Part shown: piece after piece, positions 12,316 to 58,384 of the stretch | Layout: the number at the start of each line of letters is the position of its first letter | Position numbering within the stretch: position 1 is the stretch's first letter | DNA from: Candidatus Spechtbacteria bacterium | GTDB lineage: Bacteria > Patescibacteriota > Minisyncoccia > Spechtbacterales > JACPHP01 | Reading direction: 5' to 3' | Length of the DNA: 60,070 nucleotides | Assembly (NCBI GenBank): GCA_016188605.1 | Contig: JACPHP010000016.1 | Span: 1 to 60,070 of the forward strand | Program-made: the position numbers and the translations under genes | The notes under the pieces: generated by a model | Told to the model about the DNA's origin: nothing | The model's input: the letters and a program-made list of their open reading frames with translations, nothing else | The model's database searches: none

Positions 12316-12320
12316 ACAAA

Positions 12321-12350: not shown

Positions 12351-12352
12351 TC

Positions 12353-15441: not shown

Positions 15442-15494
15442 TTGCTTTGCAGTATATCGTAGCCAGAAGAAAAAGGCACGTGTGCATAAAAAAG

Positions 15495-39898: not shown

Positions 39899-40006
39899 AA
39901 TGCCAAAGTCCAAATTATAAAGACCAAATCAATGTCAAAATCCAAAATCCAAAGTTTTGACATTAGGGCATTTGGACTTTATTTGTAATTTGACATTTGG
40001 ACTTTG
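39899..40006. repeat. word-built hairpin spacer (caaagtccaaat words)
   Basis: aatgccaaagtccaaattataaagaccaaatcaatgtcaaaatccaaa pairs with ttttgacattagggcatttggactttatttgtaatttgacatttggactttg. Confidence 0.8.
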
Positions 40007-42212: not shown

Positions 42213-42548
42213 ATGTGGGAATCACTCAAAAAGTTTATACATAGCAATCATGATCGTATAGTCGTTGTTGAGGATAACGAGCCGCGGTACGTGATAATGC
42301 CAATTGCAGAATACACGGCTTTGATAGAGAGGGGGCGGCAGGCGGATTCGACCCCTTCAATAAACTCCCCTCAATCTAATTCGGGGCAGGCACCGCAGGC
42401 AGACTCAACCGAGGCGCTGCAAAAGGTGAACAATGCGCTTCAAGAGGCACACGAGTCGGAGTCACTGATATCTCCTCCGATTGTGCCTCAAAAAGAGCCA
42501 GAGGACAGGCGTAGATCGGGGATTAGTATAGAAGACCTGCCTATTTAA
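42213..42548 (+). CDS. hypothetical protein inserted between fusA and tuf; N-terminus faintly Phd/YefM-antitoxin-like
   Basis: RIVVVEDNEPRYVIMPIAEYTALIE resembles the Phd/YefM beta-strand/helix pattern (weak, by eye). The C-terminal half is low-complexity and encoded by the repeat at 42344-42392. Confidence 0.5.
   Translation: MWESLKKFIHSNHDRIVVVEDNEPRYVIMPIAEYTALIERGRQADSTPSINSPQSNSGQAPQADSTEALQKVNNALQEAHESESLISPPIVPQKEPEDRRRSGISIEDLPI
42344..42392. repeat. hairpin-containing element embedded in frame in a CDS, copy 2
   Basis: ggattcgaccccttcaataaactCCCCtcaatctaattcGGGGcaggca. Same reading frame as copy 1 (DSTPSINSPQ.NSGQA). Confidence 0.85.
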
Positions 42549-42712
42549 TGTCAAAGTCCAAATTACAAATGACAAAAGAATGTCAAAATCTAAAAATTCA
42601 AAATTGTTAACTTTGACTAAATGCCCTAATTTTCTCCGCCTGAGACGCCTGCCCGCCTCTGGCGGGGATCAGCCTTTGGCTGAGACATTTGGACTTTGAA
42701 ATTTGAGCTTTA
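42549..42712. repeat. caaagtccaaat-word hairpin enclosing the CCGCC module, copy 3
   Basis: The arms tgtcaaagtccaaattacaaatgac.. and ..gacatttggactttgaaatttgagc flank 42626-42674, which is identical to 37317-37365. Confidence 0.8.
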
Positions 42713-42723
42713 AATTGCATCTA

Positions 42724-42751
42724 TTGACGTAATCATAAATATAAGTAAAAT
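42724..42751 (+). promoter_or_regulatory. promoter TTGACG-N16-TAAAAT for tuf (about 200-nt leader)
   Basis: -35 at 42724-42729 and -10 at 42746-42751. Confidence 0.5.
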
Positions 42752-42806
42752 ACATCTTGTGTCCTTAACTTACCTTTTTGCTCAGTAGACACTGACGCGA
42801 AAAGCT

Positions 42807-42927
42807 AGGGCTTACGCGTTTGGATGAGATGCTAGGCGCGGACGAGCAGCCGACCGAGACGTACTAAAGTACGTTGAGGAAGGAAGCGCAGTCCGCAACA
42901 ACGCAGATCGCCAAACGCGTAAGCCCT
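42807..42927 (+). ncRNA. structured element A in the tuf leader
   Basis: 17-bp closing helix agggcttacgcgtttgg/ccaaacgcgtaagccct, inner gcggac/gtccgc, and hairpin ACGTAC-taaa-GTACGT. Its homologue is at 31988-32110. Confidence 0.55.
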
Positions 42928-42959
42928 ATAAGCAATAAACTAACTAATAAATAAAATAT

Positions 42960-44196: not shown

Positions 44197-44595
44197 ATGA
44201 GCGCACAAACAACAAAAGGACAAAAAAAAACGCAAACTGTGGTACGAGCGGTCCACGAAGGCGGACGCGAAAGCGTGAAAACAGAAGAGGCTCACCAGCG
44301 ATTGCGCATCAAAATAAAAGCGTATGATCATAAAGTCATTGACTCAAGCGTGCGCCAGATTGTTGATACCGCAATGCGCTATGGCGCAGAGATGCGGGGT
44401 CCTATACCTCTTCCTACGGAATTCCACAAGTACACGGTTAATCGTTCCACTTTTATCCATAAGGACGCCAGAGAGCAGTTTGAAATGAGGATTCATAAAC
44501 GATTGCTTGACATTATCAACCCTTCTCCGCAAGTTATTGATTCTTTGATGGATCTGAACTTGCCGGCGGGTGTGGATATTGAGATAAAGATGTAA
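44197..44595 (+). CDS. rpsJ: 30S ribosomal protein S10 with a ~30-aa N-terminal extension
   Basis: [16 protein letters not shown]...IPLPT....TV.RS...HK..REQFE.R.HKRL. There is no internal start near the canonical N-terminus. Confidence 0.93.
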
Positions 44596-44700
44596 AAAAG
44601 TTAGGTTGAATTTATTAGTATTTAAACAAACTAAATGGTACACAATCGTTTAGTGCGATTATTTTCATTGTGATAAGCGCGATAAGATTTGCGTTAGCCG

Positions 44701-44740
44701 TTTTATAAAAAATCGGGGCTAGCCCCGATTTTTTATAAAA
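44701..44740. terminator. terminator-like hairpin between rpsJ and rplC
   Basis: ttttataaaaaatcggggc-ta-gccccgattttttataaaa, symmetric with A/T runs on both sides. Confidence 0.6.
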
Positions 44741-44753
44741 ATAAATTCTAGCC

Positions 44754-45365
44754 ATGAGTAAAATAATTTTGGGTACAAAACTCGGCATGAGCCAGATATT
44801 CACAGAGCAAGGACGTGTCATTCCCGTGACGCTTATTTCTTGTGGTCCATGCAAAGTTACCCAAACAAAGACCAAGGATAAGGATGGCTACAATGCAATG
44901 CAAGTTGGATTCGGCACCAAGAAAAAACTCTCACCGGCGATGAAGGGCCACTTGAAAGGATTGGAATTTTTCCGCTGGCTCCGCGAGCTTCGCTTGTCGG
45001 AAAACCAAGAGCCGACTGTCAAGCGTGGTGACGTGATAGATGTTTCTTCATTTGCAGAAAAAGAAGAGGTGAGTGTTACGGGAGTTTCTAAAGGAAAAGG
45101 TTTCCAGGGCGTAGTGAAGCGTTGGGGATTTGCGGGGCATTTTCACACACATGGAACTAAGAATACAGAACGCGCTCCAGGCGCAATAGGATCGGGATTT
45201 CCTCAGCACGTGCTAAAAGGCAGAAAAATGGCCGGTCGCATGGGCGGAGATCAGATGACGCGTCGCATGAAGATTGTAAAAGTTGACGCTAAAAACAATA
45301 TCCTTATGCTGGATGGGCCAGTGGCTGGTGTGGCAGGATCGTTAGTTGAGATTCGATCTAACTAA
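44754..45365 (+). CDS. rplC: 50S ribosomal protein L3
   Basis: ILGTKLGMSQIF..G...PVT and KGKGFQGVVKRWGF. Confidence 0.97.
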   Translation: MSKIILGTKLGMSQIFTEQGRVIPVTLISCGPCKVTQTKTKDKDGYNAMQVGFGTKKKLSPAMKGHLKGLEFFRWLRELRLSENQEPTVKRGDVIDVSSFAEKEEVSVTGVSKGKGFQGVVKRWGFAGHFHTHGTKNTERAPGAIGSGFPQHVLKGRKMAGRMGGDQMTRRMKIVKVDAKNNILMLDGPVAGVAGSLVEIRSN

Positions 45366-45375
45366 AATATAAATA

Positions 45376-45454
45376 TTGTCAACCGACAACCGCTTACCGA
45401 CAACCGTTTCGTTATTCGTTTGACAGTTAGCGGTCAGCGGTTGACGGTAGTCAA
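45376..45454. repeat. accgac-word hairpin spacer, copy 2
   Basis: Tandem accgacaaccgctt / accgacaaccgttt at 45382-45409. The right arm agttagcggtcagcggttgacggtagtcaa is at 45425-45454. Confidence 0.9.
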
Positions 45455-45466
45455 ATTGATTAACTT

Positions 45467-46159
45467 ATGAAACTTCCCTTATACACAATTGAAGGAAAAG
45501 AAAAAGGGACGGTAGAAGTACCAGATGCGATTTTTGGTGTGAGCGCAAGCTCTGATTTGCTTCACCAAGCAGTAAACGCGGCGCTAGCAAATTTGCGCAA
45601 GCCTTATGCTCATACGAAAGATCGTAGCGAAGTACGTGGCGGCGGTCGCAAGCCATGGAAGCAAAAAGGCACAGGCCGCGCTCGTCATGGATCAAGACGA
45701 TCTCCATTATGGGTTGGTGGAGGTGTTACGTTCGGCCCAAGCAAGGAAAAAGTTTTTGCGCAGAAGATTAATACCAAGATGAAGCAAAAGGCTTTATTCG
45801 GCGCATTATCATCAAAGATGATGGAAAACAACATTTTTATTGTAGAAAGTTTTACAACTCCGGAGGTAAAAACAAAGAAAGGGGTAGCTTTTTTGCAAGC
45901 GATTAAGTCTGTACGAGGCGCGGATAAGAAATTAGGAAAGGTGTTAATTTGGGGATCGATGGACGACAAAGAATTTCGCCGAATGTTTCGAAACATTGCA
46001 GGGGTTACCCCGCTCCGCATTGAGAATATAAATATTATTGATGTATTTAATCACGCGCATGTGATATTTTCAAAGTCGGCGCTTGATTTATTCATTACGC
46101 GATATGGCAATACTAGATTGGTTCAACCAAAAGCAGGAGCAGCAAAGGAAGCAGTCTAA
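45467..46159 (+). CDS. rplD: 50S ribosomal protein L4
   Basis: RGGGRKPWKQKGTGRARHGSRRSPLWVGGGVTFGP. Confidence 0.97.
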   Translation: MKLPLYTIEGKEKGTVEVPDAIFGVSASSDLLHQAVNAALANLRKPYAHTKDRSEVRGGGRKPWKQKGTGRARHGSRRSPLWVGGGVTFGPSKEKVFAQKINTKMKQKALFGALSSKMMENNIFIVESFTTPEVKTKKGVAFLQAIKSVRGADKKLGKVLIWGSMDDKEFRRMFRNIAGVTPLRIENINIIDVFNHAHVIFSKSALDLFITRYGNTRLVQPKAGAAKEAV

Positions 46160-46592
46160 GGGGGTACAATCCGAAAGGACAAAATCCTCAAAGGCAAGGC
46201 AGCCCAAGAAGCAAACTGCGCAGCAGACGGAAGTCGCTGAAAATAAAGAAGAGATAAAAAAGCCCCTAAAATTGGGGGAAGAAGTTGTTGGCGTAAAGAA
46301 CACGTTAACCGCAGGGTTCCAACATATTATTCATTCCGCATACATTACTGAAAAGACTACGAATATGCAGCCGATGGGTAAGTATGTATTTCGTATTTTC
46401 CCCACAGCAAATTCCACGCAAGTTGCAAATGCTATCAAGGCGATTTATAAAGTCCATGTGCGTAACGTGCATATTATAACTCTTCCCGAAAAGAGGGTGA
46501 GAAGAGGACGATACACTGCGACGCGCACGCGCTATCCGAAGGCAATCGTGACATTGAAGCAGGGCGAAACGATTGAAGTAGTACCAAATTAA
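46104..46592 (+). CDS. rplW: 50S ribosomal protein L23 with a ~70-aa Lys/Gln-rich N-terminal extension
   Basis: The C-terminal 95 aa are L23-like (YITEKT......KYVF.....ANSTQV..AI...Y.V.V..V). The start is uncertain (ATG 46104 or TTG 46083) and overlaps the rplD 3' end. Confidence 0.85.
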   Translation: MAILDWFNQKQEQQRKQSKGVQSERTKSSKARQPKKQTAQQTEVAENKEEIKKPLKLGEEVVGVKNTLTAGFQHIIHSAYITEKTTNMQPMGKYVFRIFPTANSTQVANAIKAIYKVHVRNVHIITLPEKRVRRGRYTATRTRYPKAIVTLKQGETIEVVPN

Positions 46593-46720
46593 AAAACTAA
46601 AATCTTAAATCTCAAACCTCAAATCTACAACTCAAATCTTAAATCTACGTAAGAAGTTTTGAGATTTTAGATTCAGTTTTGAGATTTGCCATTTGAGATT
46701 TGAGATAAAAAGTTAAATTT
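46593..46720. repeat. word-built hairpin spacer (aaatctcaaa words) at the non-canonical L23|L14 junction
   Basis: ctaaaatcttaaatctcaaacctcaaatctacaactcaaatcttaaatc pairs with gttttgagattttagattcagttttgagatttgccatttgagatttgag. Confidence 0.8.
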
Positions 46721-47086
46721 ATGATTCAGGCAGAAACAAAACTTAATGTAGCAGATAATACCGGAGCTAAAGAAATCCAGTGTTTTAAGGTACTGGGAGG
46801 TACTCGACGCCGCTACGCGCAGATAGGCGATATTATCGTTGCCGCAGTAAAAGTCGCGGAGCCGCGCCGAATCGTGAAGTTGCACGAAGTGGTAAAGGCT
46901 GTTATTGTGCGTCAGCGCACCCCATTCCGCCGCAAGGATGGTTCGTATATTCGTTTTGACGAGAATGCGGCAGTTATCCTAGACGGAAAAGAGCCTAAGG
47001 GAGGCCGTATATTCGGTCCTATTCCAAGGGAATTAAAGGAGCGTGGTTTTGATAAGATAGCATCGCTGGCGCCGGAATTGATATAA
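46721..47086 (+). CDS. rplN: 50S ribosomal protein L14
   Basis: [24 protein letters not shown] and IRFD.NA.V. Confidence 0.98.
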
Positions 47087-47089
47087 CAA

Positions 47090-47167
47090 CTATGAATAGT
47101 GAATCATGAATAGTGAATCATGCAGGTGTAGGTATTCATGATTCGTGATTCACTATTCAGTATTCAT
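47090..47167. repeat. word-built hairpin spacer (exact 14-nt tandem atgaatagtgaatc x2)
   Basis: Tandem units at 47092-47105 and 47106-47119, then ATGCAGG. The right arm is attcatgattcgtgattcactattcagtattcat. Confidence 0.9.
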
Positions 47168-47174
47168 TTAACCT

Positions 47175-47480
47175 ATGAAACTAAAAAAGGGAGACATAGT
47201 CGTAATCACGAAAGGAAAGGATCGTGGCAAAAAAGCGAAGATACTTCGCGCTTTTCCTTCTGTTGAAAAGATTATGGTTGAGGGCGTTAATATCCACAAG
47301 CGACATCGCCGCCGACGTTCACAGAGAGAAAAAGGGCAAATTATTTCTATGCCCGTGCCATTTTCTGTATCCAATGTAAAAATTGTATGCGGCAAGTGTA
47401 ATCGGGCGGCGCGCGTACAGTACCAAGGACACGGGAAAGAAAAAGTCCGGATATGCTCATCTTGCAGTGAAAAACTATGA
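47175..47480 (+). CDS. rplX: 50S ribosomal protein L24 with a C-terminal CxxC...CxxC motif
   Basis: KOW motif KLKKGDIVVITKGKDRGKKAKI. The C-terminus reads CGKCNRAARV..RICSSCS. Confidence 0.95.
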   Translation: MKLKKGDIVVITKGKDRGKKAKILRAFPSVEKIMVEGVNIHKRHRRRRSQREKGQIISMPVPFSVSNVKIVCGKCNRAARVQYQGHGKEKVRICSSCSEKL

Positions 47481-48052
47481 TAAATTATTCATTCCAAAAA
47501 CAGTATAAAGATGTCGTTATTCCTGTATTAAAGGAAGCTTTCGGATACAAAAATATTCAGAGCATTCCTCGTCTGGATCGCGCGGTGATTAATGTCGGCG
47601 TCGGAAGAATGCTTAATCAACGCAGCCAAGCCGGAGTTAAAAACGAGGATGCGATAAAAGATATTGTTAAAGCGCTTGCGTTAATTAGCGGGCAGAAGCC
47701 GATTATAGTGCGCTCAAAAAAATCAATTGCAGGATTTAAACTTCGCGCGGGAATGATTAGCGGTGTCAAGGTAACACTACGCAGATCTCGCGCCGAGGAG
47801 TTCTTGGGGAGATTGGCGCACGTCGCTTTGCCCAGAACGCGCGATTTCCGCGGCATTCGTCGATCGACCGTTGATCCATACGGCAACCTTACAATCGGCA
47901 TCAAAGAAAGTATTATTTTTCCAGAACTCGCAGAACTTACTAGCCATTTTGGTCTTGAGGTAACATTTGTTTCTACGGCAAAGACACGCGATGAAGCCTT
48001 CCTTTTATTTGAAAAGTTAGGCATTCCATTCCAAAAAGAAAAAGATAATTAA
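47477..48052 (+). CDS. rplE: 50S ribosomal protein L5
   Basis: Y.....P.L.E.F.YKN....PRLD..VINVGVG and RDFRG. Confidence 0.97.
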   Translation: MINYSFQKQYKDVVIPVLKEAFGYKNIQSIPRLDRAVINVGVGRMLNQRSQAGVKNEDAIKDIVKALALISGQKPIIVRSKKSIAGFKLRAGMISGVKVTLRRSRAEEFLGRLAHVALPRTRDFRGIRRSTVDPYGNLTIGIKESIIFPELAELTSHFGLEVTFVSTAKTRDEAFLLFEKLGIPFQKEKDN

Positions 48053-48068
48053 TCTTTATTAGGGTGGG

Positions 48069-48177
48069 GTTGACCCCGTTAGAGATGCAGGCATAAAACA
48101 AAATAAAGTACTTTATAGAATCCATTTAAATTTTTATCCTAAACCTATTTTCCACATTTATCTCTAACGGGGTTGAC
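48069..48177. repeat. inverted repeat spacer whose right arm carries the reused promoter core
   Basis: gttgaccccgttagagat (48069-48086, followed by ATGCAGG) pairs with atctctaacggggttgac (48160-48177). Confidence 0.8.
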
Positions 48178-48200
48178 TTAAATGTAATTTTCTGTAAAAC
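48114..48200 (+). promoter_or_regulatory. reused promoter cassette, copy 2: TTGACT-N16-TAAAAC; leaderless geometry for rpsN
   Basis: tatagaatccatttaaatttttatc..tttatctctaacggggTTGACT. -35 at 48173-48178 and -10 at 48195-48200. The ATG at 48208 lies 8 nt after the -10. Confidence 0.5.
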
Positions 48201-48207
48201 TTTTTCT

Positions 48208-48393
48208 ATGGCTAGAAAAGCCCTCATCAACAAAGCGCAAAGGACGCCAAAATTTTCAACTCGGCTTGTTCGACGATGTTTCCGTTGCGGAAGAAAAAAT
48301 TCATATATGAGAGATTTTAGATTGTGCAGAATTTGTTTCAGAGAGCTTGCAAATAGAGGAGAGCTCCCGGGTGTTAAAAAAGCTTCTTGGTAG
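48208..48393 (+). CDS. rpsN: 30S ribosomal protein S14, type Z (zinc)
   Basis: 61 aa with CFRCGR..........CRICFRE. Confidence 0.96.
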
Positions 48394-48458
48394 TGCCACA
48401 AAACGGCACTCGCGGACAACGCGGACTTAACGCAGAAATACGCAGAAAAATTAAATTT

Positions 48459-48653
48459 ATGGATATTCGTGAAACGAGACAAAAATCAATACCCGAACTA
48501 GAATCGCTTTTGAGAGAAAATCAGGCGCATTATCTTGATTTGCGATTTCGCGTGCAAGGAGGACGAGTGAAGAACGTTAACGAGATGCAGCGCGCGCGCA
48601 AGGATATCGCGCGATTATTTACTCTTCTGCGCCAAGCTACTCTAAAGAAATAA
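48459..48653 (+). CDS. rpmC: 50S ribosomal protein L29
   Basis: MDIRETRQKSIPELESLLRENQAHYLDLRF. The track ORF start at 48387 extends into the spacer. Confidence 0.9.
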   Translation: MDIRETRQKSIPELESLLRENQAHYLDLRFRVQGGRVKNVNEMQRARKDIARLFTLLRQATLKK

Positions 48654-48778
48654 TTTAGATTGTAAAATGTATATTCTAATACTTAAAAAGTAAAATAATT
48701 TGAAGCTCAGTATACAGTTGTAACTGTATACTGAGTGATGAATTTGCAACATCGCTTCGCTCTGGCAAATTCTATCAT

Positions 48779-49081
48779 ATGACAGCAACATTCCCCAAAA
48801 AATTTGAAGGAACCGTGGTGTCCAACTCAATGGATAAGACTGTTGTCGTGGAAGTGCGAATGTTGAAGCAGCATCCTAAATACAAAAAGTTCATGAAGCT
48901 GAGCAAACGCTATAAGGCGCACGATGATGGGAATATATATAAAGTAGGCCAGCGTGTTTCTATTGTTGAGGTGCGGCCAATATCTAAAGATAAGAAATGG
49001 AAAGTCCAAGAGCTTCTGTCAGATGTTAAAGAAATAGCAGAGGAGATCGGAGAAGTTAATGAAGAGATTGCATCATTATGA
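48779..49081 (+). CDS. rpsQ: 30S ribosomal protein S17
   Basis: FEGTVVSNSMDKTVVVEV......PKYKK......RYKAHD and V.I.E.RPISK.K.W. Confidence 0.95.
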   Translation: MTATFPKKFEGTVVSNSMDKTVVVEVRMLKQHPKYKKFMKLSKRYKAHDDGNIYKVGQRVSIVEVRPISKDKKWKVQELLSDVKEIAEEIGEVNEEIASL

Positions 49082-49905
49082 AATACCGCAAACCAACGTC
49101 ACCAGGACAACGCGGGATGGTCGTTTCAGACTTTTCCGACCTAATCAAGCCGAAAAGAAAAAAACGGCTTGTTGTTGCGCATCATCGTTTTGTTGGTCGC
49201 AGCAGAGGAAAGATAACAGTGCGCCATAAAGGTAGTGGCGCAAAGCGTTTATATCGTCTCGTTGATTTCAAGCAAGATAAATTTGATATTTCCGCGACAG
49301 TTTTGCATTTGGAATATGACCCCAATAGAAGCGCGCGCATCGCATTTGTTCAATACAAAGACGGCGAAAAAAGATATGTGCTTGCCACGCAAGACACAAA
49401 GCCGGGTGATGAAATAATGTCATCAGAAAAGAAGATCGCGCTTATAAACGGCAATCGTATGCCACTTAAACATATCACCATTGGAACGTTTGTGCACAAC
49501 ATTGAGTTGGGACATAATCGTGGAGGTATGCTTGCGCGTTCTGCGGGAGCGTATGGCAAAGTTGCGGCACAGGAAGGGGCATCAACGCATATTATAATGC
49601 CTTCATCTGAAGTGCGTATAATTCAAAATGACTGTTTGGCAACAGTTGGCGTGGCGTCCAACGCTTCGCATAGCGAAGAAGTAATAGGAAAAGCAGGTCG
49701 TAATCGCCACAAGGGAATTCGTCCGACTGTTCGTGGTACAGCAATGAACCCGGTTGATCATCCGCACGGAGGAGGTGAGGGCAGAGCGCCGATTGGCATG
49801 CCTCATCCAAAGACACCGTGGGGCAAGCCCGCGCTTGGCGTGAAGACGCGAGACAGACGGCGATATTCTAACAGGCTTATTGTTCAACGAAGAAGGAAGA
49901 AATAG
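49078..49905 (+). CDS. rplB: 50S ribosomal protein L2
   Basis: KPTSPGQRG and [15 protein letters not shown] 4-nt ATGA overlap with rpsQ. Confidence 0.98.
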
Positions 49906-49908
49906 AAC

Positions 49909-50019
49909 TAAAGTTAAAAGTTAAAAGTCACAAGTTAAAAATTATAGTATGCCGCTTCGCGGCAATATATACATCCCCAAAGGGGATACCGACACTTTTA
50001 ACTTTTGACTTTACACTTT
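49909..50019. repeat. two-hairpin core module, copy a (aagttaaaagtcac-word arms)
   Basis: Core at 49941-49990: attatagtaTGCCGCttcGCGGCAatatatacATCCCCaaaGGGGATacc. Confidence 0.9.
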
Positions 50020-50033
50020 GTATTTTTTTAATT

Positions 50034-50342
50034 ATGTCACGATCACTGAAAAAAGGAGCATACGTAAATGAGAAGCTGATGAAAAAAATCGGCAAGCTTA
50101 GAGTTGGCGATAAAACCGTAATCAAGACGTGGTCGCGCTCCTCAACTATTACTCCTGAGATGATTGGATTGACTTTTGGAGTGCATAATGGCAAAGATCA
50201 TATTCCAGTGTATGTTACAGAAGACATGGTCGGACATAAGTTAGGTGAATTTTCCCCAACACGAAAGTTTGCGCGTCACGGAGGAAAAATGCAGAAAGAG
50301 ATTGAGGGTAAAGGAGTGGCACAGCCAGTAGCCAAAAAATAA
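50034..50342 (+). CDS. rpsS: 30S ribosomal protein S19
   Basis: [22 protein letters not shown] and VHNGK. Confidence 0.98.
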
Positions 50343-50351
50343 TATTAAAAA

Positions 50352-50438
50352 TGTCTACCGACGACCGCTTACCGACTACAGCTCACAGCCATCAGACGAG
50401 TAATGGGCAGTTAGCGGTCAGCGGTTGACGGTAGTCAA
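50352..50438. repeat. accgac-word hairpin spacer, copy 3
   Basis: tgtctaccgacgaccgcttaccgac pairs with agttagcggtcagcggttgacggtagtcaa (50409-50438). Confidence 0.9.
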
Positions 50439-50450
50439 TTAATTGGATTT

Positions 50451-50801
50451 ATGCCAACAGCAACAGCAAAACTTTCTTATATGCACATCGCGCCTCGCAA
50501 GGTGCGGCTTGTTGCTGATGTTATTCGTGGCATGCGTGTTGATCGAGCGGAAGAGCAGTTACGTTTTTCACGTAAACGCGCGGCCCACGATATTTTGAAG
50601 CTTTTGAAGTCTGCCCAGGCAAACGCAAGGGGATCGGAAAAAGATGTAAAAAATCCCGCACCCCTGTATGTGCGAAGTATTGTTGTTGAACAGGGTCCGG
50701 CATACAAGCGTTATCATCCGCAATCGCGAGGCCGCGCGGCATTGATTAAAAAGATAACCAGCCATGTGAAAATTGAATTGGCTGAAAAGGAAACTAAATA
50801 A
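50451..50801 (+). CDS. rplV: 50S ribosomal protein L22
   Basis: I.PRKVRLVADVIRG..V..A...L.FS.K.AA. Confidence 0.97.
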   Translation: MPTATAKLSYMHIAPRKVRLVADVIRGMRVDRAEEQLRFSRKRAAHDILKLLKSAQANARGSEKDVKNPAPLYVRSIVVEQGPAYKRYHPQSRGRAALIKKITSHVKIELAEKETK

Positions 50802-50896
50802 AGTTAAAAGTCACAAGTTAAAAATTATAGTATGCCTCTTCGCGGCAATATATACATCCCCAAAGGGGATACCGACACTTTTAACTTTTGACTTTA
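50802..50896. repeat. two-hairpin core module, copy b
   Basis: Core at 50824-50873, with stem TGCCTC/GCGGCA (a U.G pair in the sense strand). Confidence 0.9.
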
Positions 50897-50919
50897 AATT
50901 TTACACTCGCAGTAAACTT

Positions 50920-51645
50920 ATGGCACACAAAGTTCACCCCACATCATTTAGACTCGGTATTTTAACGGAATGGAAGTCACGTTGGTTTAGCGCGCGCGGA
51001 TATCAAGATAATTTGCAAGAAGAAATATACATTCGTGAGAAATTAGTGAAACAATTGCGCAGTGCCAGCATAGATAAGATTGAATTTGAACGGTCTGGAA
51101 ACAAACTTTCTGTTATTATACATACGGCTCGCCCAGGGCTTATTATTGGTCGCGGGGGCGCTGGCGCGGATGATTTACGCGCATCAATAGTGAAGATGAT
51201 ACGCGCCACTCGCTTGGTTAATAAGCCGGAAAAAGGTATAAATAAATCTACACATCATCGCGAAGACAAAAAAGAAGTAGAGCAGCCGAAGCGTCTACCC
51301 GAAGTTCGCGTTGAGATTCGCGAAGTACGACAACCCGAACTTTACGCGGCCCTTGTTGGTCAAGGTATCGCAGAGCAGCTAGAAAAACGCATGCCTTTCC
51401 GACGTGTAATTAAGCGAACATTGGATCGCGTGATGATGAATAAAGCCGTACAAGGCGCGAAGATTATGGTTAAGGGTCGTCTTGATGGTTCTGAAATGGC
51501 GCGCAGAGAGTTGGTTAGAGCTGGCCGTCTCCCTTTACAAAAGCTCCGCGCTGATATAGATTATGCTCACACCATTGCGTATACTACGTACGGTGTTATT
51601 GGCGTGACAGTGTGGATTTATCGAGGAGATAAGCTGGAGAAATAA
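50920..51645 (+). CDS. rpsC: 30S ribosomal protein S3
   Basis: MAHKVHPTSFRLGI...W.S.WF with a KH domain. The track ORF start at 50773 reads through the repeat. Confidence 0.96.
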   Translation: MAHKVHPTSFRLGILTEWKSRWFSARGYQDNLQEEIYIREKLVKQLRSASIDKIEFERSGNKLSVIIHTARPGLIIGRGGAGADDLRASIVKMIRATRLVNKPEKGINKSTHHREDKKEVEQPKRLPEVRVEIREVRQPELYAALVGQGIAEQLEKRMPFRRVIKRTLDRVMMNKAVQGAKIMVKGRLDGSEMARRELVRAGRLPLQKLRADIDYAHTIAYTTYGVIGVTVWIYRGDKLEK

Positions 51646-51646
51646 T

Positions 51647-51762
51647 AAATTCAAAATGCAAATCTTAAATCTCAAAATTATGGTGTGCCGCGGAGCGGCA
51701 CTATATACATTCCCCAAAGGGGATACCAAAGTTTTGCATTTTGAGATTTAAGTTTTGAGATT
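51647..51762. repeat. two-hairpin core module, copy c (caaaatgcaaatc-word arms)
   Basis: Core at 51677-51727: attatggtGTGCCGCggaGCGGCACtatatacatTCCCCaaaGGGGAtacc. Confidence 0.9.
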
Positions 51763-51767
51763 GAAAT

Positions 51768-52181
51768 ATGTTAGTCCCAAAGAAGGTAAAACATCGTAAA
51801 TGGACAAAGGGCCATCATCGTACGGCGATAGATTCGCGTGGCACGACGCTTAGTTTTGGTTCTTACGGTCTGCAAGTCAAGGAAGGCCATGGGCGTGTTA
51901 CGAGCCGTCAGATTGAAGCTGTGCGCCGCGTGTTTACACGCGCGATGAAAAAAGGAGGAAAAGTGTGGATCCGTATTTTCCCAGATCGGCCAATAACTAA
52001 GAAAGGAGTGGAGGTTCCGATGGGCGGAGGAAAGGGTTCGGTAGAGCATTATGTGGCGGACGTTGGTCCGGGACGCATTTTGTTTGAGATTGATGGAATA
52101 ACTCCCGATGTCGCAAAAGAAACAATGCGGCTTGCAGGATTCAAGCTGTCGGTGCGGACACGGATGATTACTAGAGAGTAA
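51768..52181 (+). CDS. rplP: 50S ribosomal protein L16
   Basis: MLVPKKVKHRK...G, with the G.YGL pattern and RQIEA.RR. Confidence 0.98.
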   Translation: MLVPKKVKHRKWTKGHHRTAIDSRGTTLSFGSYGLQVKEGHGRVTSRQIEAVRRVFTRAMKKGGKVWIRIFPDRPITKKGVEVPMGGGKGSVEHYVADVGPGRILFEIDGITPDVAKETMRLAGFKLSVRTRMITRE

Positions 52182-52287
52182 AAGTTAGTTAAAAGTTAAA
52201 AGTCACAAGTTAAAAATTATAGTATGTCGCTTCGCGGCAATATATACATCCCCAAAGGGGATACCGACACTTTTAACTTTTGACTTT
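52182..52287. repeat. two-hairpin core module, copy d, at the non-canonical L16|L6 junction
   Basis: Core at 52216-52265, with stem TGTCGC/GCGGCA (a U.G pair in the sense strand). Confidence 0.9.
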
Positions 52288-52308
52288 AAATTTTACACTT
52301 ATTTAATT

Positions 52309-52851
52309 ATGTCACGAATTGGCAAACAACATATTACGTTACCAAAAAATGTCACGATCGAACAAAACGACCGTGTTTTGAATATAAGCGGGCCGCGGGG
52401 CGCGCTTTCCATAATACTAACCAATGAGGTTGAAGTAAGAAATGAGAATGGCGTATATATTGTTGGGCTTTCTAGCAATGAACTAAATAAAAAAAGCGTA
52501 TCTTTATGGGGGCTTACAAAACGCTTAATTGAAAATGCCGCGAAAGGAGTAAGTGAAGGGTTTAGTAAGAAAATGTTTATTGAAGGTGTTGGCTACCGGG
52601 CAGAAATACAGGGGAAAGATTTAGTGTTGAGTTTGGGATTCTCTCATCCGGTTCGCATTTCTGCTCCAGAAGGAATACAATTCAATGTTGATAAAAACAC
52701 ACTTACTGTTTCGGGGAACGATAAATATCTAGTTGGGCAGGTTGCGGCAAATATCCGCGTGTATCGAAAGCCAGAACCATATAAAGGAAAGGGTATTCGT
52801 TATGAGGGCGAACGCGTTCGTCGCAAGGCTGGTAAGAAAGCGGCTGCGTAA
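52309..52851 (+). CDS. rplF: 50S ribosomal protein L6
   Basis: MSRIGKQ.I.LP..V and PEPYKGKGIRY. Confidence 0.97.
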   Translation: MSRIGKQHITLPKNVTIEQNDRVLNISGPRGALSIILTNEVEVRNENGVYIVGLSSNELNKKSVSLWGLTKRLIENAAKGVSEGFSKKMFIEGVGYRAEIQGKDLVLSLGFSHPVRISAPEGIQFNVDKNTLTVSGNDKYLVGQVAANIRVYRKPEPYKGKGIRYEGERVRRKAGKKAAA

Positions 52852-52879
52852 TTGATTTTAATTATTTGAACAAAGATTT

Positions 52880-53245
52880 ATGGAAAGTCGCGTCTCTACA
52901 AAAAAAAGAATATTAAGAAATCGTCGTCACAAGCGAATTCGCAGTACGATGCAGGGGACCAAACAGCACCCGCGGCTTTGCGTATTTCGTTCAAATACAT
53001 CAATATACGCGCAAATTATTGATGATGAGAAGGGTATGGTATTGGCTTTTGCAACAGATCGTAAGTTGAATGATAAAAAGAAAGAAGGTAAGGTTGGCCG
53101 CGCGGAGCGAGTAGGAGAGCAAATCGCTGAACTTGCCAAGAATGCGGGTATTAAAAAAGTGAAATTTGATCGCGGAGGATATAGATATCACGGTCGTATA
53201 AAAGCGCTTGCCGATGGCGCAAGGAAAGGAGGGTTGATATTCTAA
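52880..53245 (+). CDS. rplR: 50S ribosomal protein L18
   Basis: R..R.R......T...PRL.VFRSN..IYAQIIDD and FDRGGY.YHGR.KALA. Confidence 0.97.
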   Translation: MESRVSTKKRILRNRRHKRIRSTMQGTKQHPRLCVFRSNTSIYAQIIDDEKGMVLAFATDRKLNDKKKEGKVGRAERVGEQIAELAKNAGIKKVKFDRGGYRYHGRIKALADGARKGGLIF

Positions 53246-53343
53246 CTAAAGTTAAAAGTCACAAGTTAAAAATTATAGTATGTCGCTTCGCGGCAATATA
53301 TACATCCCCAAAGGGGATACCGACACTTTTAACTTTTGACTTT
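53246..53343. repeat. two-hairpin core module, copy e, at the non-canonical L18|S8 junction
   Basis: The core at 53272-53321 is identical to copy d. Confidence 0.9.
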
Positions 53344-53363
53344 AAATTTTGAATTTATATTTT

Positions 53364-53756
53364 ATGCATTCCGATCCAATAGCAGACATGCTTAATCGAA
53401 TAAAGAACGCTTCTATACTCCACCACGAGGTGGTGAAGATTCCGTATTCCAAAGTAAAAGGGCAACTCGCCGATTTGCTATTGGAAGAAGGTTTTTTGGC
53501 AGGAGTGGATCGCAAGAAAGACGGCGTGCGAAAATATCTTGTTATTAATTTGCGCTATGAAGGGGGTGCGTCGGCAGTTAATGGAGTTGCGCGAATCAGT
53601 AAGCCTGGGCGCCGTATGTATGTTAAGGCGGCGGAAGTTAAGCCGGTTAAGCATGGCTATGGTTGCGCGGTTATATCAACGTCCAAAGGTCTCATGACGG
53701 ATAAGCGCGCCCGCGAGAAAGGGCTTGGCGGAGAGTTTTTTTGTAAAGTTTGGTAA
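53364..53756 (+). CDS. rpsH: 30S ribosomal protein S8
   Basis: DPIADMLNRIKNA and ST..G....RA....GGE. The ATG at 53364 is preferred to the track TTG at 53349. Confidence 0.96.
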   Translation: MHSDPIADMLNRIKNASILHHEVVKIPYSKVKGQLADLLLEEGFLAGVDRKKDGVRKYLVINLRYEGGASAVNGVARISKPGRRMYVKAAEVKPVKHGYGCAVISTSKGLMTDKRAREKGLGGEFFCKVW

Positions 53757-53767
53757 AAAGGTACATT

Positions 53768-54433
53768 ATGCCAACACCACAATTATCACAATCAAGAAAT
53801 TCACAAGACCATCGTCGTATGGGGCCTGGAGGAGGAAGGGGGGGCGAGCGAAGGGGTGGGATACAGCAAAGGAGAGAACGAGGTCCGCAAACTCAAAGAG
53901 AGGGATCGCGTTTTGCGTCACAAGAATTTGAGCAAAAACTTTTACAGCTTGCTCGCGTTGCTCGTGTCACGAAAGGCGGACGACGATTTAGTTTCCGCGC
54001 GACAGTAGTTATTGGTGATCGCAATGGTCGTGTCGGGGTGGGGGTTGCAAAGGGAACTGACGTTTCCGCGGCAGTTGAAAAAGCCGTGCGTAATGCTAAG
54101 CGCGCTTTGATTATTGTCCCAATGACAAAAAATAAGACTGTTCCTTATGAAGTCATCGGCAAGCAGACTAGCGCCCGAGTATTTTTGGCACCGGCATTCG
54201 GCGGGCGTGGAATTATTGCTGGAGGCGCTGTGCGCGCAGTGTGCGACCTGGCAGGATATCGTGATATTTCAGCAAAAATTTTAGGACGCACGAGTAATAA
54301 ATTAAATAACGCGCTTGCAACCATTAAAGCATTGCAATCAATTAAGATGATGAAGCGAGGAAAGGTTACGCAAAACGAAGTAATCTCAAACGAAACGGTC
54401 GTGAGTGAGGATGAGGTTCAACTAGTAAAATAA
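53768..54433 (+). CDS. rpsE: 30S ribosomal protein S5 with an Arg/Gly-rich N-terminal extension
   Basis: VTKGGRRFSFRATVVIGDRNGRVGVGVAKG, preceded by about 50 aa of GGGRGGERRGG-type sequence. Confidence 0.95.
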   Translation: MPTPQLSQSRNSQDHRRMGPGGGRGGERRGGIQQRRERGPQTQREGSRFASQEFEQKLLQLARVARVTKGGRRFSFRATVVIGDRNGRVGVGVAKGTDVSAAVEKAVRNAKRALIIVPMTKNKTVPYEVIGKQTSARVFLAPAFGGRGIIAGGAVRAVCDLAGYRDISAKILGRTSNKLNNALATIKALQSIKMMKRGKVTQNEVISNETVVSEDEVQLVK

Positions 54434-54437
54434 AATA

Positions 54438-54519
54438 TCTAGAATACAGAATCTAGAATACAGAATGCAGGAAAAACTAACCGCAACTCCCCGTATTCTT
54501 GATTCTGTATTCTGTATTC
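54438..54519. repeat. word-built hairpin spacer (exact 14-nt tandem tctagaatacagaa x2)
   Basis: Units at 54438-54451 and 54452-54465, then ATGCAGG. The right arm is gtattcttgattctgtattctgtattc. Confidence 0.9.
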
Positions 54520-54525
54520 AAAGTT

Positions 54526-54969
54526 ATGCAGATGCACGAATTACAAAAACCGAAGACTCAGAGAAAATCTCGACGCGTGGGACGCGGCGGAAAGCGCGGT
54601 ACTTATTCTGGTCGTGGCATGAAAGGGCAAAAAGCGCGCGCGGGCGCAAAGATACGCCCGGAATTCCGTGAATTTTTTAAGCGCGTTCCGAAGCTCCGCG
54701 GCTCAAACGGCCCAACTTTTGCATTCAAAAAAAATAATGTAGAGGTGGTTTCCCTCCAGGCGCTTGATAAATATTTTGAAAAAGGAGATGTTGTATCGCC
54801 AAAGACACTGGTTGAGCACAAGGTTGCCGTTAAGCTTAACGGCCGCTTGTCACTTGTAAAGATTCTCTCTAAAGGTACAATTTCTAAAGGAGTGAATGTG
54901 GAAGGATGTTCCCTTTCAGCATCAGCACGTAAGCAGATTGTGAGTGCAGGAGGAAGCGTTAAAAACTAA
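54526..54969 (+). CDS. rplO: 50S ribosomal protein L15
   Basis: RRVGRGGKRGTYSGRGMKGQKARAG. It directly follows rpsE, with no L30 gene between them. Confidence 0.95.
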   Translation: MQMHELQKPKTQRKSRRVGRGGKRGTYSGRGMKGQKARAGAKIRPEFREFFKRVPKLRGSNGPTFAFKKNNVEVVSLQALDKYFEKGDVVSPKTLVEHKVAVKLNGRLSLVKILSKGTISKGVNVEGCSLSASARKQIVSAGGSVKN

Positions 54970-55088
54970 ACTCAAAATGCAAATCTCAAATCTCAAAATT
55001 ATGGTGTGCCGCGAAGCGGCACTATATAAATCCCGCCAGAGGCGGGATACCACAACTTTGCATTTTGAGCTTTAAGTTTTGAGATTGA
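54970..55088. repeat. two-hairpin core module, copy f (variant second hairpin)
   Basis: Core at 54998-55051: attatggtGTGCCGCgaaGCGGCACtatataaaTCCCGCCagaGGCGGGAtacc. Confidence 0.9.
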
Positions 55089-55093
55089 AACCT

Positions 55094-56368
55094 ATGTCCG
55101 TTCTACGTCAACTATTCTATACATCCGAACTTCGCAATAAGATATTTTTCGTTCTCGGCGCTTTAGCCCTGTTTCGCGTGTTTGCTAACATTCCTATTCC
55201 GGGCATTAATCCCGAGCGCCTCGCCGCCTTCTTTGCGGGCAATCAATTCTTCGGTCTTCTTAATCTATTTTCAGGCGGAGCGCTTAGCAACCTCTCGCTT
55301 ATGATGCTCGGTCTTGGTCCGTACATTACCGCAACGATTATTTTGCAGCTTTTTACAATGATATTTCCTCGCCTCAAAGAGATGTATCAAGAGGAGGGCG
55401 AGATGGGCAGGCAAAAATTCAATCAATATTCGCGCATGCTTACCGTACCGCTGTCATTATTGCAGGGGTATGGTCTTATTACTCTTTTTACGCGTCAGGG
55501 GCTCATAGATCCATTAAAACCGCTTGCTTTAGCAGCGGCTTTGCTTACTGTCACCGCCGGATCATTGTTGCTTATGTGGATTGGCGAACTTATTTCTGAA
55601 AAAGGAATTGGTAATGGCATCTCGCTATTAATTTTTGCCGGTATTATTGCTGACGCGCCTAGTTCTATTCAGCAACTTATTGCATCAGGCACGCAAGAAG
55701 ATATTCCCGGATATATCATTTTCGCCGCGCTTTCTGTAATTATTGTGGCAAGTGTTGTGGTAGTTAATGAGGCGCGAAGGAATATTCCCGTGACCTATGC
55801 TAAACGAGTTCGTGGAAATAAGATGTACGGCGGCGTTTCTACTTTTTTACCGATTAATTTGAATCCGGCAGGTGTTATTCCTATCATTTTTGCGCTTTCC
55901 ATCTTACTGCTTCCAACCATGATAGCTAGTTTTGCGGCGGCCTCTACGAATCATTTGGTGATTAGAATTTCTGAATATATAACAAAATTCTCGCAAGGAA
56001 GCTGGGAATATAATCTAATATATTTTATTTTAGTGGTGCTATTTACTTATTTTTATACCGCTGTAACTTTTGAGCCGCACAATATTGCGACAAATCTTCA
56101 GAAGCAAGGGGGCTTCATTCCGGGCATTCGTCCAGGGAATCCAACTTCGGAGTATCTTTCCTACATTTTGAATCGCACTCTTTTCGTTGGCGCGTTATTT
56201 TTAGGGACGATTGCTGTTTTTCCTTCAATAATTCAAGGCGCAGTTAATATTCAGGCCTTTCGATTTCTTGTTGGCGGTACAGCCGTACTGATTGTTGTTT
56301 CCGTAGTGCTTGAAACAGTGCGGCAGATTCGCGGCCAATTGGCGATGCGCCAATATGAAGAATTTTAA
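55094..56368 (+). CDS. secY: preprotein translocase subunit SecY
   Basis: 10-TM protein with the SecY N-terminal and GLGPYITA..I motifs. The ATG at 55094 is preferred to the track TTG at 55079. Confidence 0.96.
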   Translation: MSVLRQLFYTSELRNKIFFVLGALALFRVFANIPIPGINPERLAAFFAGNQFFGLLNLFSGGALSNLSLMMLGLGPYITATIILQLFTMIFPRLKEMYQEEGEMGRQKFNQYSRMLTVPLSLLQGYGLITLFTRQGLIDPLKPLALAAALLTVTAGSLLLMWIGELISEKGIGNGISLLIFAGIIADAPSSIQQLIASGTQEDIPGYIIFAALSVIIVASVVVVNEARRNIPVTYAKRVRGNKMYGGVSTFLPINLNPAGVIPIIFALSILLLPTMIASFAAASTNHLVIRISEYITKFSQGSWEYNLIYFILVVLFTYFYTAVTFEPHNIATNLQKQGGFIPGIRPGNPTSEYLSYILNRTLFVGALFLGTIAVFPSIIQGAVNIQAFRFLVGGTAVLIVVSVVLETVRQIRGQLAMRQYEEF

Positions 56369-56473: not shown

Positions 56474-57694
56474 ATGCCGGTAAAAAAATTTGTTCCAAAA
56501 TTAAGAAGCAAGAAAAAATACTCTTTTGCCACCAAAGCCCTTCACAGCGGCTACAAGGCGGGCGTCTGGGACGCTTCTTTAGTACCGCCTTTGTATTTGG
56601 GCGTGGCGCATGAGTTTGAAAGCACTAAATTTGCCAACGATGTATTCACGGGCAGGCGCGAGGGTTTTGTGTACGGTCGCATCAACAATCCCACATGCGA
56701 TATATTTGAAAAACGCATGGCTGAACTAGAAAACGGCGAAGCGGCAATTGGTACTGCGTCCGGTATGGCGGCGATATTTGTAACCAGTATTGCTTTATCA
56801 TCAGCCGGAGATGAAATTGTCAGTTCCGACCGCGTGTACGGCGGAACATTTCATTTATTTTCCGATACATTGCCGCGGCTCGGCATTAAGGTGAACTTTG
56901 TAAAAAATCCTCACGCGGTTTCATCATGGGAAGCGGCAATCACGCCAAAGACAAAATTTTTGTATGTGGAAACGCCATCAAACCCGGTGCTCGATGTTTT
57001 TGACATTGAAATGCTCGCAAACTTGGCAAATAAACATCACTTGCCCTTGGTGGTAGACAGCACCATCGCAAGTCCCGCGCTGACAAGGCCAATTGAGCTT
57101 GGCGCTGATATTGTAGCGCATTCAGCGACAAAATATATTTGTGGCAATTCCACTGCCCTCGGCGGGGTTATTGTAGGCAAGAAAGCATTGATTGACGGCA
57201 TTCGCGTCGGCGTGTATCGCGATATTGGCCCGACGCTTGCGCCGATGAACGCGTGGCTTATGCTTAACGGCCTTGGAACGCTTGCCATGCGCATGGAAAA
57301 TCACTCGCGCAATGCGCAAGCCGTCGCGGAATTTTTGCAAGCGCATCATAAAATTAGCCGCGTGTTTTATCCCGGGCTTTCAAATTCGCCATATCGCGCG
57401 CTTGTGGACAAGCAAATGCAAGGTAATGCGAGCGCCCTGCTTGCGTTTGAAATGAAGGGAACAAAGGCGGGATGCTCTAAATTTATTGAGGCGCTTGAGC
57501 TTACGACTCACGCCGCGCATCTTGGCGACATTAGAACCCTTGCCATTCATCCCGCATCAACGACGCATGAACAATTGTCGGCGGAAGCAAAAAAGAAAGC
57601 CCATATTTCTGATACGCTGGTGCGCATGTCCATTGGCCTTGAGGACGTTGGCGACATTATCGCGGATATTCGCAACGCGCTAACCAAAGTCTAA
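56474..57694 (+). CDS. Cys/Met-metabolism PLP enzyme (O-acetylhomoserine sulfhydrylase / methionine gamma-lyase family)
   Basis: YGRINNPTCDIFEKRMAELENGEAA.GTASGMAA, HSATKYICG (PLP-binding Lys) and VRMSIGLED. Confidence 0.88.
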   Translation: MPVKKFVPKLRSKKKYSFATKALHSGYKAGVWDASLVPPLYLGVAHEFESTKFANDVFTGRREGFVYGRINNPTCDIFEKRMAELENGEAAIGTASGMAAIFVTSIALSSAGDEIVSSDRVYGGTFHLFSDTLPRLGIKVNFVKNPHAVSSWEAAITPKTKFLYVETPSNPVLDVFDIEMLANLANKHHLPLVVDSTIASPALTRPIELGADIVAHSATKYICGNSTALGGVIVGKKALIDGIRVGVYRDIGPTLAPMNAWLMLNGLGTLAMRMENHSRNAQAVAEFLQAHHKISRVFYPGLSNSPYRALVDKQMQGNASALLAFEMKGTKAGCSKFIEALELTTHAAHLGDIRTLAIHPASTTHEQLSAEAKKKAHISDTLVRMSIGLEDVGDIIADIRNALTKV

Positions 57695-57701: not shown

Positions 57702-58364
57702 ATGGTTGAAGCTATCCATCCACGCATCGTTATTCTTCTTGGCCGCTCCGGGGCGGGTAAGGGAACGCAAGCAAAATTATTGCAGGAAAAATACGGACTT
57801 ACCTATATGGGGTCCGGCGATTTATTAAGGGAACGCGCGACACACGACGATTTTTCCGGAAAAAAAATTCACACCGTGCTTGCAAGCGGCGGATTCTCTC
57901 CCACAATTTTTATCGCGAAACTCTGGATGGACAAGTTTGAAGAGTTTAAGCAGTTAGAAAATTTTAAGGGCGTTCTTTTTGACGGCAGCCCGCGAAAATT
58001 ATTGGAAGCCCAGCTTATCGATCAGGCAATTGCGTGGTATGAGTGGGAGGGCGACCAACGCGTGTTCCTGCTTGATATTCCGCGTGACGTAGCATACCAG
58101 CGATTGATCGATCGCCGTATTTGCAAAGCCTGTTCGTTTGTTACTTCTATTCATGAAACGCCGGATACAAGCTGCCCAACATGTCATAATTCGTTAGATA
58201 TACGTTTTGATGATAAGCCCGACCTTATTAATTCACGTCTTGATCTTTTTGAAAGCGAAGTTGAGCCCGTGGTAGAGTATTATGAGAAGAATAATCGCCT
58301 AACACGCATTAACGGTGTTGGCGAAATTTCCGAAATATTTGAATCTATTTGTAAGTATTTATAA
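57702..58364 (+). CDS. adk: adenylate kinase, copy 1 (Cys4 lid)
   Basis: LLGRSGAGKGTQ, with lid CKAC....CPTC. Confidence 0.92.
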   Translation: MVEAIHPRIVILLGRSGAGKGTQAKLLQEKYGLTYMGSGDLLRERATHDDFSGKKIHTVLASGGFSPTIFIAKLWMDKFEEFKQLENFKGVLFDGSPRKLLEAQLIDQAIAWYEWEGDQRVFLLDIPRDVAYQRLIDRRICKACSFVTSIHETPDTSCPTCHNSLDIRFDDKPDLINSRLDLFESEVEPVVEYYEKNNRLTRINGVGEISEIFESICKYL

Positions 58365-58384
58365 TATTATTGAATCACAGCAAT

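Follow-up and report, generated by a model that had tools for sequence, protein, structure and literature searches.

A reordered S10-spc ribosomal protein gene cluster that probably marks a small, deep clade of Patescibacteria

The S10-spc cluster of ribosomal protein (r-protein) genes is a textbook example of a gene order that has been kept throughout Bacteria and Archaea. How, then, should we understand a locus in which the genes are all present and the order is not the usual one? Such a locus lies on the forward strand of contig JACPHP010000016.1 of a Candidatus Spechtbacteria bacterium (assembly GCA_016188605.1), whose 60,070 nucleotides (nt) were analysed as a whole and are called here the window. 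An initial annotation, made from the sequence, had described whole blocks of the cluster at 44197-54969 as standing in a permuted order. We asked whether this order is real, whether related genomes share it and by which route it might have arisen. The evidence gathered below makes it probable, at roughly 85%, that the S10-spc cluster of the window has truly been rearranged and that this rearrangement, inherited vertically, marks a small, deep clade of Patescibacteria (Candidate Phyla Radiation, CPR).

Gene order and the six novel junctions

All 20 open reading frames (ORFs) at 44197-54969 (+ strand) have NCBIfam equivalog matches with E-values from 1e-10 to 1e-106, and each r-protein is present in one copy. 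Curated NCBIfam cut-offs are exceeded by 17 of the 20, with L23, S5 and L15 falling marginally below. The order is S10-L3-L4-L23-[L14-L24-L5-S14]-[L29-S17]-[L2-S19-L22-S3-L16]-[L6-L18]-S8-S5-L15-SecY, and the identity of every gene thereby confirms the order that had been claimed. When L2-S19-L22-S3-L16 is labelled block A, L29-S17 block B, L14-L24-L5-S14 block C and L6-L18 block D, the canonical L23|A|B|C|S8|D|S5 becomes L23|C|B|A|D|S8|S5 in the window. The gene identities thus bear out the proposed reversal of three blocks without inversion and the exchange of S8 with L6-L18. The window shares with the canonical cluster its gene set (one copy each), its direction, its contiguity, the order inside the blocks and the flanks, S12-S7-EF-G-EF-Tu upstream and SecY, adenylate kinase (Adk) and methionine aminopeptidase downstream; it differs by six new adjacencies, with six canonical adjacencies broken. 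The array (44197-56368) is contiguous and co-directional (+) and ends with SecY, and its longest spacer measures 158 nt. According to the ORF list and the NCBIfam scans, L30 is absent between S5 and L15.

The six novel junctions, all read on the + strand, are of different kinds. The 128-nt spacer at L23|L14 (46593-46720) folds into a long hairpin with short-period A/T-rich arms (minimum free energy, MFE, -35 kcal/mol; z-score -6.2), and the spacers at L16|L6 (52182-52308, 127 nt, MFE -34.7 kcal/mol, z -6.1) and L18|S8 (53246-53363, z -6.1) each carry a copy of a repeat element named D1. Hairpin or repeat spacers had initially been assigned to four of the six novel junctions; those three are strong, but the fourth, the 65-nt spacer at S14|L29 (48394-48458, preceding the L29 ATG at 48459), folds weakly (z -2.25). 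The claimed ATGA overlap of S17|L2 (49078-49081) is seen directly in the sequence, with the ATG at 49078-49080 and the TGA at 49079-49081. The S8|S5 spacer (53757-53767) measures 11 nt, as had been stated, provided that S5 starts at the ATG at 53768 as in public gene calls. Tight junctions in the window are L24/L5, S17/L2, S8|S5 and L6|L18. As far as can be judged from sequence, the tightness of S17/L2 and S8|S5 suggests that coupling re-evolved between the new neighbours.

Assembly support, relatives and rival readings

An independent view of the junctions is offered by Logan contigs, which are single-run assemblies from several Sequence Read Archive runs of the SRR121133xx/SRR121134xx series; their assembler differs from that of the window, and the reads may be the same as those behind the window assembly. 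Contig L001 equals window 46678-49946 (L14-L24-L5-S14-L29-S17-L2) and contig L088 equals window 53321-56209 (S8-S5-L15-SecY), both at 100% identity. Contigs L002, L090 and L091 also match the window at 100%, and L089 at 99.94%. The assembly check that had been called for therefore gives 99.9-100% identity across S14|L29 (spanned by L001), S17|L2 (L001 and L002) and S8|S5 (L088-L091). All three junctions are in unique sequence and suffice on their own to rule out the canonical order. An exact copy of the 130-aa S8 product occurs on four Logan contigs, and wherever the exact L2 or the exact S8 protein occurs on a public contig, its neighbours are the novel ones.

The order is also found in relatives, as a comparison suggested at the outset could establish. 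Contig L083, a 37,993-bp MEGAHIT contig from the coal-slag metagenome of PRJNA384362 (described in PMC5462947), and its sister-sample contig L084 have the same permuted order over all six novel junctions. Their proteins are 47-86% identical to those of the window (L2 67-68%, SecY 72%). Diagnostic adjacencies recur in three further lineages: L29-S17-L2 in L087 (L2 90%); S14-L29-S17-L2-S19 in L100 and L18-S8-S5-L15-SecY in L263, both from GCA_041643115.1 (L2 66%, SecY 71%); and S17-L2 in L102 (L2 64%). Taken by junction, S14 precedes L29 in L083, L084, L085 and L100, S17 precedes L2 in L083-L087, L100 and L102, L16 precedes L6 in L083/L084, L18 precedes S8 in L083/L084 (with a 9-nt spacer) and L263, and S8 precedes S5 in L083, L084 and L263. 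The spacers at L18-S8 and S17-L2 are variable (9 to 118 nt), and so are the flanking termini. The more distant L101 (L2 63%) and L265 (SecY 67%) have the canonical order. Two other contigs, L264 (SecY 74%) and L345 (SecY 69%), end inside S5 and are uninformative on order.

How rare is this arrangement? We scored 344 loci for diagnostic adjacencies at the six junctions and found 300 canonical only, 14 permuted only (all of this lineage), none mixed and 30 uninformative. At the six junctions, each of the 300 informative loci from outside the clade has canonical adjacencies only, and two of these loci have another local change. A 14-gene core order is conserved across Bacteria and Archaea according to a paper on Asgard archaea (PMC10833476), and for Gammaproteobacteria and Bacilli the events that one study gives as examples consist of gene deletions within operons and insertions between them (PMC8046335). 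In the literature that we searched there was no prior report of this order in CPR, which is not proof that none exists. Two apparent single-gene moves were observed in passing, each in one Patescibacteria metagenome-assembled genome (MAG): in L099 (7350-7625) S19 stands between S14 and S8, with L2 directly next to L22, and in L324 (UBA2193, 14006-14605) the order is L5-S8-S14-L6. Like the rearrangement in the window, these moves are non-inverting and local, and they occur in CPR genomes with an otherwise intact cluster; they involve one gene in one MAG each, whereas the clade of the window has three multi-gene blocks reversed plus a swap, in several lineages. Given these moves, small departures in order may be less rare in CPR than elsewhere.

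In an L2 neighbour-joining tree, the five permuted lineages cluster together with 76% bootstrap support, and the canonical L101 is their sister (87%). SecY is 72-74% identical among members of the clade and 64-70% identical to that of the canonical group of L265, L183 and L184. The nearest named sequences belong to Candidatus Spechtbacteria/Spechtbacterales (SecY 65-68%), and L2 matches Parcubacteria-group MAGs at 50-60%. The closest homologues being Patescibacteria MAGs and L30 being absent, the window falls within Patescibacteria near Spechtbacteria; an Rfam scan found no rRNA gene in the window. All genes were retained in their original orientation, and the order has persisted through a protein divergence to 47-86% identity. 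The rearrangement is old, fixed and non-inverting, and it lies on the stem of the clade; parsimony favours a single ancient origin on a short stem, after which the order long stayed unchanged.

Several observations weigh against a genuine, inherited rearrangement, and some of them lend support to rival readings. The Logan contigs break in repeats (at 46678, 49946 and 53321, with L088-L090 all starting at 53321), and L23|L14, L16|L6 and L18|S8 in this genome rest on the original assembly and on the agreement of relatives, with no second assembly. Four D1 copies with a nearly identical core of ~100 nt could have misled the assembler, leaving the true order canonical. Such a repeat-induced mis-assembly is hardly credible, however, and we regard it as effectively refuted: the three junctions reproduced in unique sequence cannot be reconciled with the canonical order, L083/L084, L263 and L100 agree at all junctions, including the three repeat-bearing ones, although they come from other projects and assemblers and have other spacers, and shuffling segments between D1 copies cannot yield the canonical order. 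There is likewise no complete genome of the clade that would exclude a second cluster elsewhere, of which the window might be an extra, paralogous or decaying copy beside a functional canonical one. Against this reading, which we give next to no weight, all 20 genes are intact with 17 above the curated cut-offs, the check for a canonical copy uncovered no second copy, relic or secondary match of any r-protein gene within the 60-kb contig, the public contigs with the exact L2 or S8 product all have the novel neighbours, and the arrangement has been kept over a long divergence, unlike a decaying copy.

The phylogenetic evidence has its own weak points. Monophyly comes from a single protein tree of moderate support, and it was assessed with cluster genes only (L2 and SecY), which would travel together if the cluster had been transferred horizontally among unrelated Patescibacteria; such transfer, or else convergence, would deprive the order of its value as a clade marker. 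We consider both very unlikely. The flanks of the window and L083 are collinear and similar (EF-G 80%, EF-Tu 86%, with a Phd-like small ORF between them), replacement of a resident cluster of ~20 essential genes would be very rare, and it is improbable that the same six-junction order arose twice. No clade members were found among the GTDB species representatives in the matches listed. These searches used the window L2, a 2-sequence and a 28-sequence SecY alignment, the D1 DNA core and the L083 L2, and gave, among the matches listed, canonical, more distant genomes only, or nothing. A metagenome scan with the clade L2 alignment gave, among the matches listed, only loci of at most 55% identity, all canonical, and is uninformative on the clade itself. 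Intermediates with the A/B/C reversal alone or the S8 swap alone occur in none of the 344 loci. Pseudogene relics of duplicated copies are absent from the window, where age could have erased such traces. Finally, hairpins show no enrichment at the novel junctions of the window, nor in the canonical L265 at the junctions that the rearrangement broke (3-4 of 6 versus ~5 of 13).

Intercistronic hairpins and the route of the rearrangement

The intercistronic spacers of the window are mostly 90-160 nt long and fold as long hairpins (z -4.7 to -7.6). Strong hairpin spacers occupy three of the six novel junctions versus ~10 of the 14 canonical ones. The repeat families in these spacers are D1, D2, D7 and D9. 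D1 consists of a long A/T stem around two small G+C hairpins, and copies of its ~100-nt core lie at the canonical junctions L2|S19 (49906-50033) and L22|S3 (50802-50919) as well as at the novel L16|L6 and L18|S8. The module that the initial annotation had noticed at the latter two junctions indeed has an identical core; it is not peculiar to them, however, as the cores at L2|S19 and L22|S3 are nearly identical to the L16|L6 copy in alignment. D2, a variant of D1, is found at S3|L16 (51646-51767) and L15|SecY (54970-55093). Within the 60 kb of the window, the six D1/D2 cores occur only at 49.9-55.1 kb, all of them on the + strand and between cluster cistrons. Other hairpin elements lie on the same strand at the canonical junctions L3|L4 (45366-45466), S19|L22 (50343-50450), L14|L24 (47087-47174) and L29|S17 (48654-48778). 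Read by eye, the hairpin arms of 45366-55093 are apparently made of units of ~7 nt. The spacer elements have no Rfam match, either at the gathering threshold or at E<=1, where tRNAs and chance hairpin matches were the only hits, and the D1 DNA core has no match in GTDB representative genomes.

Are these spacers involved in expression? A consensus scan found no canonical terminators inside the array, and one terminator-like hairpin was read by eye in the S10|L3 spacer. Most likely the array is still transcribed as a long unit, in which the long intercistronic stems may act as processing or stability elements. Every D1 also contains a promoter-like TTAAAA-N16-TATAGT on the + strand (49921-49948, 50804-50831, 52196-52223 and 53252-53279) with 9 of 12 consensus positions; this weak motif is perhaps a by-product of the A/T-rich arm, perhaps an internal promoter.

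The hairpin sequence family differs from genome to genome, and the junctions occupied often match. In L083 (spacers at 3257-15811), the AGCTTTTAGCT-type family is of quite different sequence from that of the window and occupies L23|L14, L2|S19, L22|S3, S3|L16, L16|L6 and L15|SecY; the spacers of L083 at L18|S8 and S17|L2 are only 9 nt and 3 nt long. At S17|L2, L100 (655-734) and L102 (131-246) have yet other hairpins. The proposal that S17|L2 is an old, translationally coupled junction fits the tight spacing in L083, but such tightness is not general, since L100 and L102 have hairpin spacers there. Among canonical relatives, L265 (4497-8721) has its own hairpin family, including copies at L16|L29, S17|L14 and S14|S8, and L005 has hairpins at L23|L2 and L16|L29; most others have tight spacers of <30 nt. 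Invasion of the operon by same-orientation hairpin repeats is thus characteristic of the broader group from which the rearrangement emerged. L083 also carries a 128-nt element, with copies (276-403 and 9281-9408) that are 84% identical and follow S12 (S12|S7 spacer) and S14 (the novel S14|L29 spacer), each beginning within the final 18 nt of the gene before it.

Repeat-mediated recombination had been put forward as an obvious candidate mechanism, and one version of it is a recent homologous exchange between the repeats now present at the junctions, such as the L16|L6 and L18|S8 copies. The identical D1 cores in direct orientation on both sides of L6-L18, and the hairpin or repeat spacers at three of the six novel junctions, would fit such an event. 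Yet the order is common to lineages that have diverged to 47-86% protein identity, D1 also occupies canonical junctions, where hairpins are in any case frequent, and S17|L2 and S8|S5 have no repeat at all. Because the relatives share the order but carry other elements or none, the present repeats did not cause the event, and we regard a recent exchange between them as very improbable. The repeats now at the junctions of the window would rather be later arrivals, or have been homogenised later, than footprints of the rearrangement. What survives of the original proposal is an ancestral role of intercistronic repeats, which is plausible: hairpin families also occur in the canonical L265, which makes an ancestral repeat-mediated process conceivable, though unproven.

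How might the ancient rearrangement have proceeded? The minimum path that we computed takes three block transpositions or two tandem duplication-loss steps. Repeats in the same orientation between cistrons could have allowed unequal crossing-over, leading to tandem duplication and then to the loss of one copy of each gene. Hairpin spacers of ~100 nt would supply the homology for this crossing-over, and they would also uncouple neighbouring cistrons, so that reordering would cost less. Tight junctions such as the S17/L2 ATGA and the 11-nt S8|S5 would have formed after the rearrangement, maybe restoring translational coupling. Duplication-loss or unequal recombination between same-orientation intercistronic repeats appears to be the most likely route, but we propose duplication-loss through such repeats as the specific path only tentatively, with the odds somewhat against it.

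Both parts of this scheme have known counterparts. Tandem duplication with random loss is a model that has been applied to animal mitochondrial gene order. The window is likewise permuted without inversion or loss and can be reached in two steps; it has no duplicated remnants, and its relatives show no intermediates, which leaves the model as a candidate mechanism only. Intergenic palindromic repeat families of bacteria include REP/BIME, Correia, RUP/BOX and the Rickettsia palindromic elements. The window spacers resemble REP-like repeats and miniature inverted-repeat transposable elements in being multi-copy, imperfect palindromes of ~100 nt, which are intergenic only and belong to genome-specific families; D1 and D2 differ in lying all on the transcribed strand and, in the 60 kb examined, only between S10-spc cistrons.

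A more far-reaching idea is that the operon was split into hairpin-bounded cistron modules, perhaps separated in the RNA, whose order became irrelevant to stoichiometry, allowing a burst of reshuffling and then stasis. We consider it unlikely. If it were true, the S10-spc order would be held by expression coupling and not by the logic of ribosome assembly, and the hairpins would represent a class of structured, operon-resident spacers not described before. The joint occurrence of pervasive hairpin repeats and rearrangement suggests in any case a testable link between operon modularisation and reordering.

Whatever the route, the clade shows that the S10-spc order is not strictly obligatory, since the genes are intact and co-directional. 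It offers a natural setting in which to ask why the order is usually maintained, be it for translational coupling, autoregulation or assembly order. Autoregulatory RNA structures of Escherichia coli, described in one account as narrowly distributed to Gammaproteobacteria (PMC3616713), might constrain gene order. The six novel adjacencies, for example S17 to L2 and S8 to S5, are a rare genomic change that could be used as a clade marker in the poorly sampled Patescibacteria. The exception is also relevant to pipelines that rely on r-protein synteny, such as contig-level phylogeny with marker blocks, scaffold curation and chimera checks.

Features of individual genes and of the flanks

All genes of the array are on the + strand. 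The first four are rpsJ (S10, 44197-44595; NF001861, E 1.8e-44), rplC (L3, 44754-45365; TIGR03625, E 3.6e-64), rplD (L4, 45467-46159; TIGR03953, E 2.4e-58) and rplW (L23, 46083-46592; NF004363, E 5.3e-22, 78.2 bits against a cut-off of 81). The start of rplW is uncertain, as the L23 domain opens at about residue 80 of the longest ORF. Block C (46721-48393), contiguous in the Logan contig L001, comprises rplN (L14, 46721-47086; TIGR01067), rplX (L24, 47175-47480; TIGR01079), rplE (L5, 47477-48052; NF000585) and rpsN (S14, 48208-48393; NF005974), the last being of type Z. Block B (48459-49081) holds rpmC (L29, 48459-48653 from its ATG, the ORF opening with TTG at 48387; TIGR00012) and rpsQ (S17, 48779-49081; NF004123). 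Block A (49078-52181) contains rplB (L2, 49078-49905; TIGR01171), rpsS (S19, 50034-50342; TIGR01050), rplV (L22, 50451-50801; TIGR01044), rpsC (S3, 50920-51645 from its ATG; TIGR01009) and rplP (L16, 51768-52181; TIGR01164).

Block D (52309-53245) consists of rplF (L6, 52309-52851; TIGR03654) and rplR (L18, 52880-53245; TIGR00060). Downstream of it, rpsH (S8, 53364-53756; NF001109, E 5.9e-45) is given from the ATG used in public gene calls, its ORF opening with TTG at 53349. It is followed by rpsE (S5, 53768-54433; TIGR01021, 163.2 bits against a cut-off of 164.05), whose product has a long N-terminal extension, rplO (L15, 54499-54969; TIGR01071, 76.3 bits against 77.95) and secY (55094-56368, alternatively from 55079; PF00344), which encodes a 424-aa product. 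Compared with window 53321-55001, the Logan contig L089 (SRR12113431) has a 1-base indel that shifts the L15 frame, due either to strain variation or to a sequencing error.

Some r-proteins have lineage-specific extensions: ~31 N-terminal residues in S10 (44197-44289), up to ~75 residues in L23 (46083-46316) and ~50 extra residues, rich in Arg and Gly, in S5 (53768-53920). S3 (50920-51645) matches its model in two stretches, suggesting an insertion.

Upstream of the cluster lie genes for an M50 peptidase, S12, S7, EF-G, a small Phd/YefM-like ORF and EF-Tu, and downstream of SecY follow a pyridoxal phosphate (PLP) enzyme of Cys/Met metabolism, two Adk paralogues and methionine aminopeptidase. 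The small ORF between EF-G and EF-Tu keeps its position in the window (42213-42548, 111 aa) and in L083 (3374-3667, 97 aa); it weakly matches the N-terminus of the Phd/YefM antitoxin family, below the Pfam cut-off. In L101, a 79-aa ORF lies between EF-G and EF-Tu. The PLP enzyme (PF01053) stands between SecY and Adk and is followed by the two tandem Adk paralogues. This layout, at 56474-57694 and 57702-59056 of the window, is common to the canonical L265 (11442-13971) but not to the permuted L083.

The 411-nt spacer before EF-Tu (42549-42959) contains repeat copies in common with 37305-37367 and 39899-39947. Read by eye, it also holds a long-range inverted repeat, GGGCTTACGCGTTTGG … CCAAACGCGTAAGCCC. 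A promoter-like TTGACG-16-TAAAAT at 42724 matches 10 of 12 positions and is among the better sites of the scanned region. Elsewhere in the window, 26600-26999 comprises three tandem 180-nt repeats with cores 94-100% identical, inside a 931-aa ORF (26197-28992).

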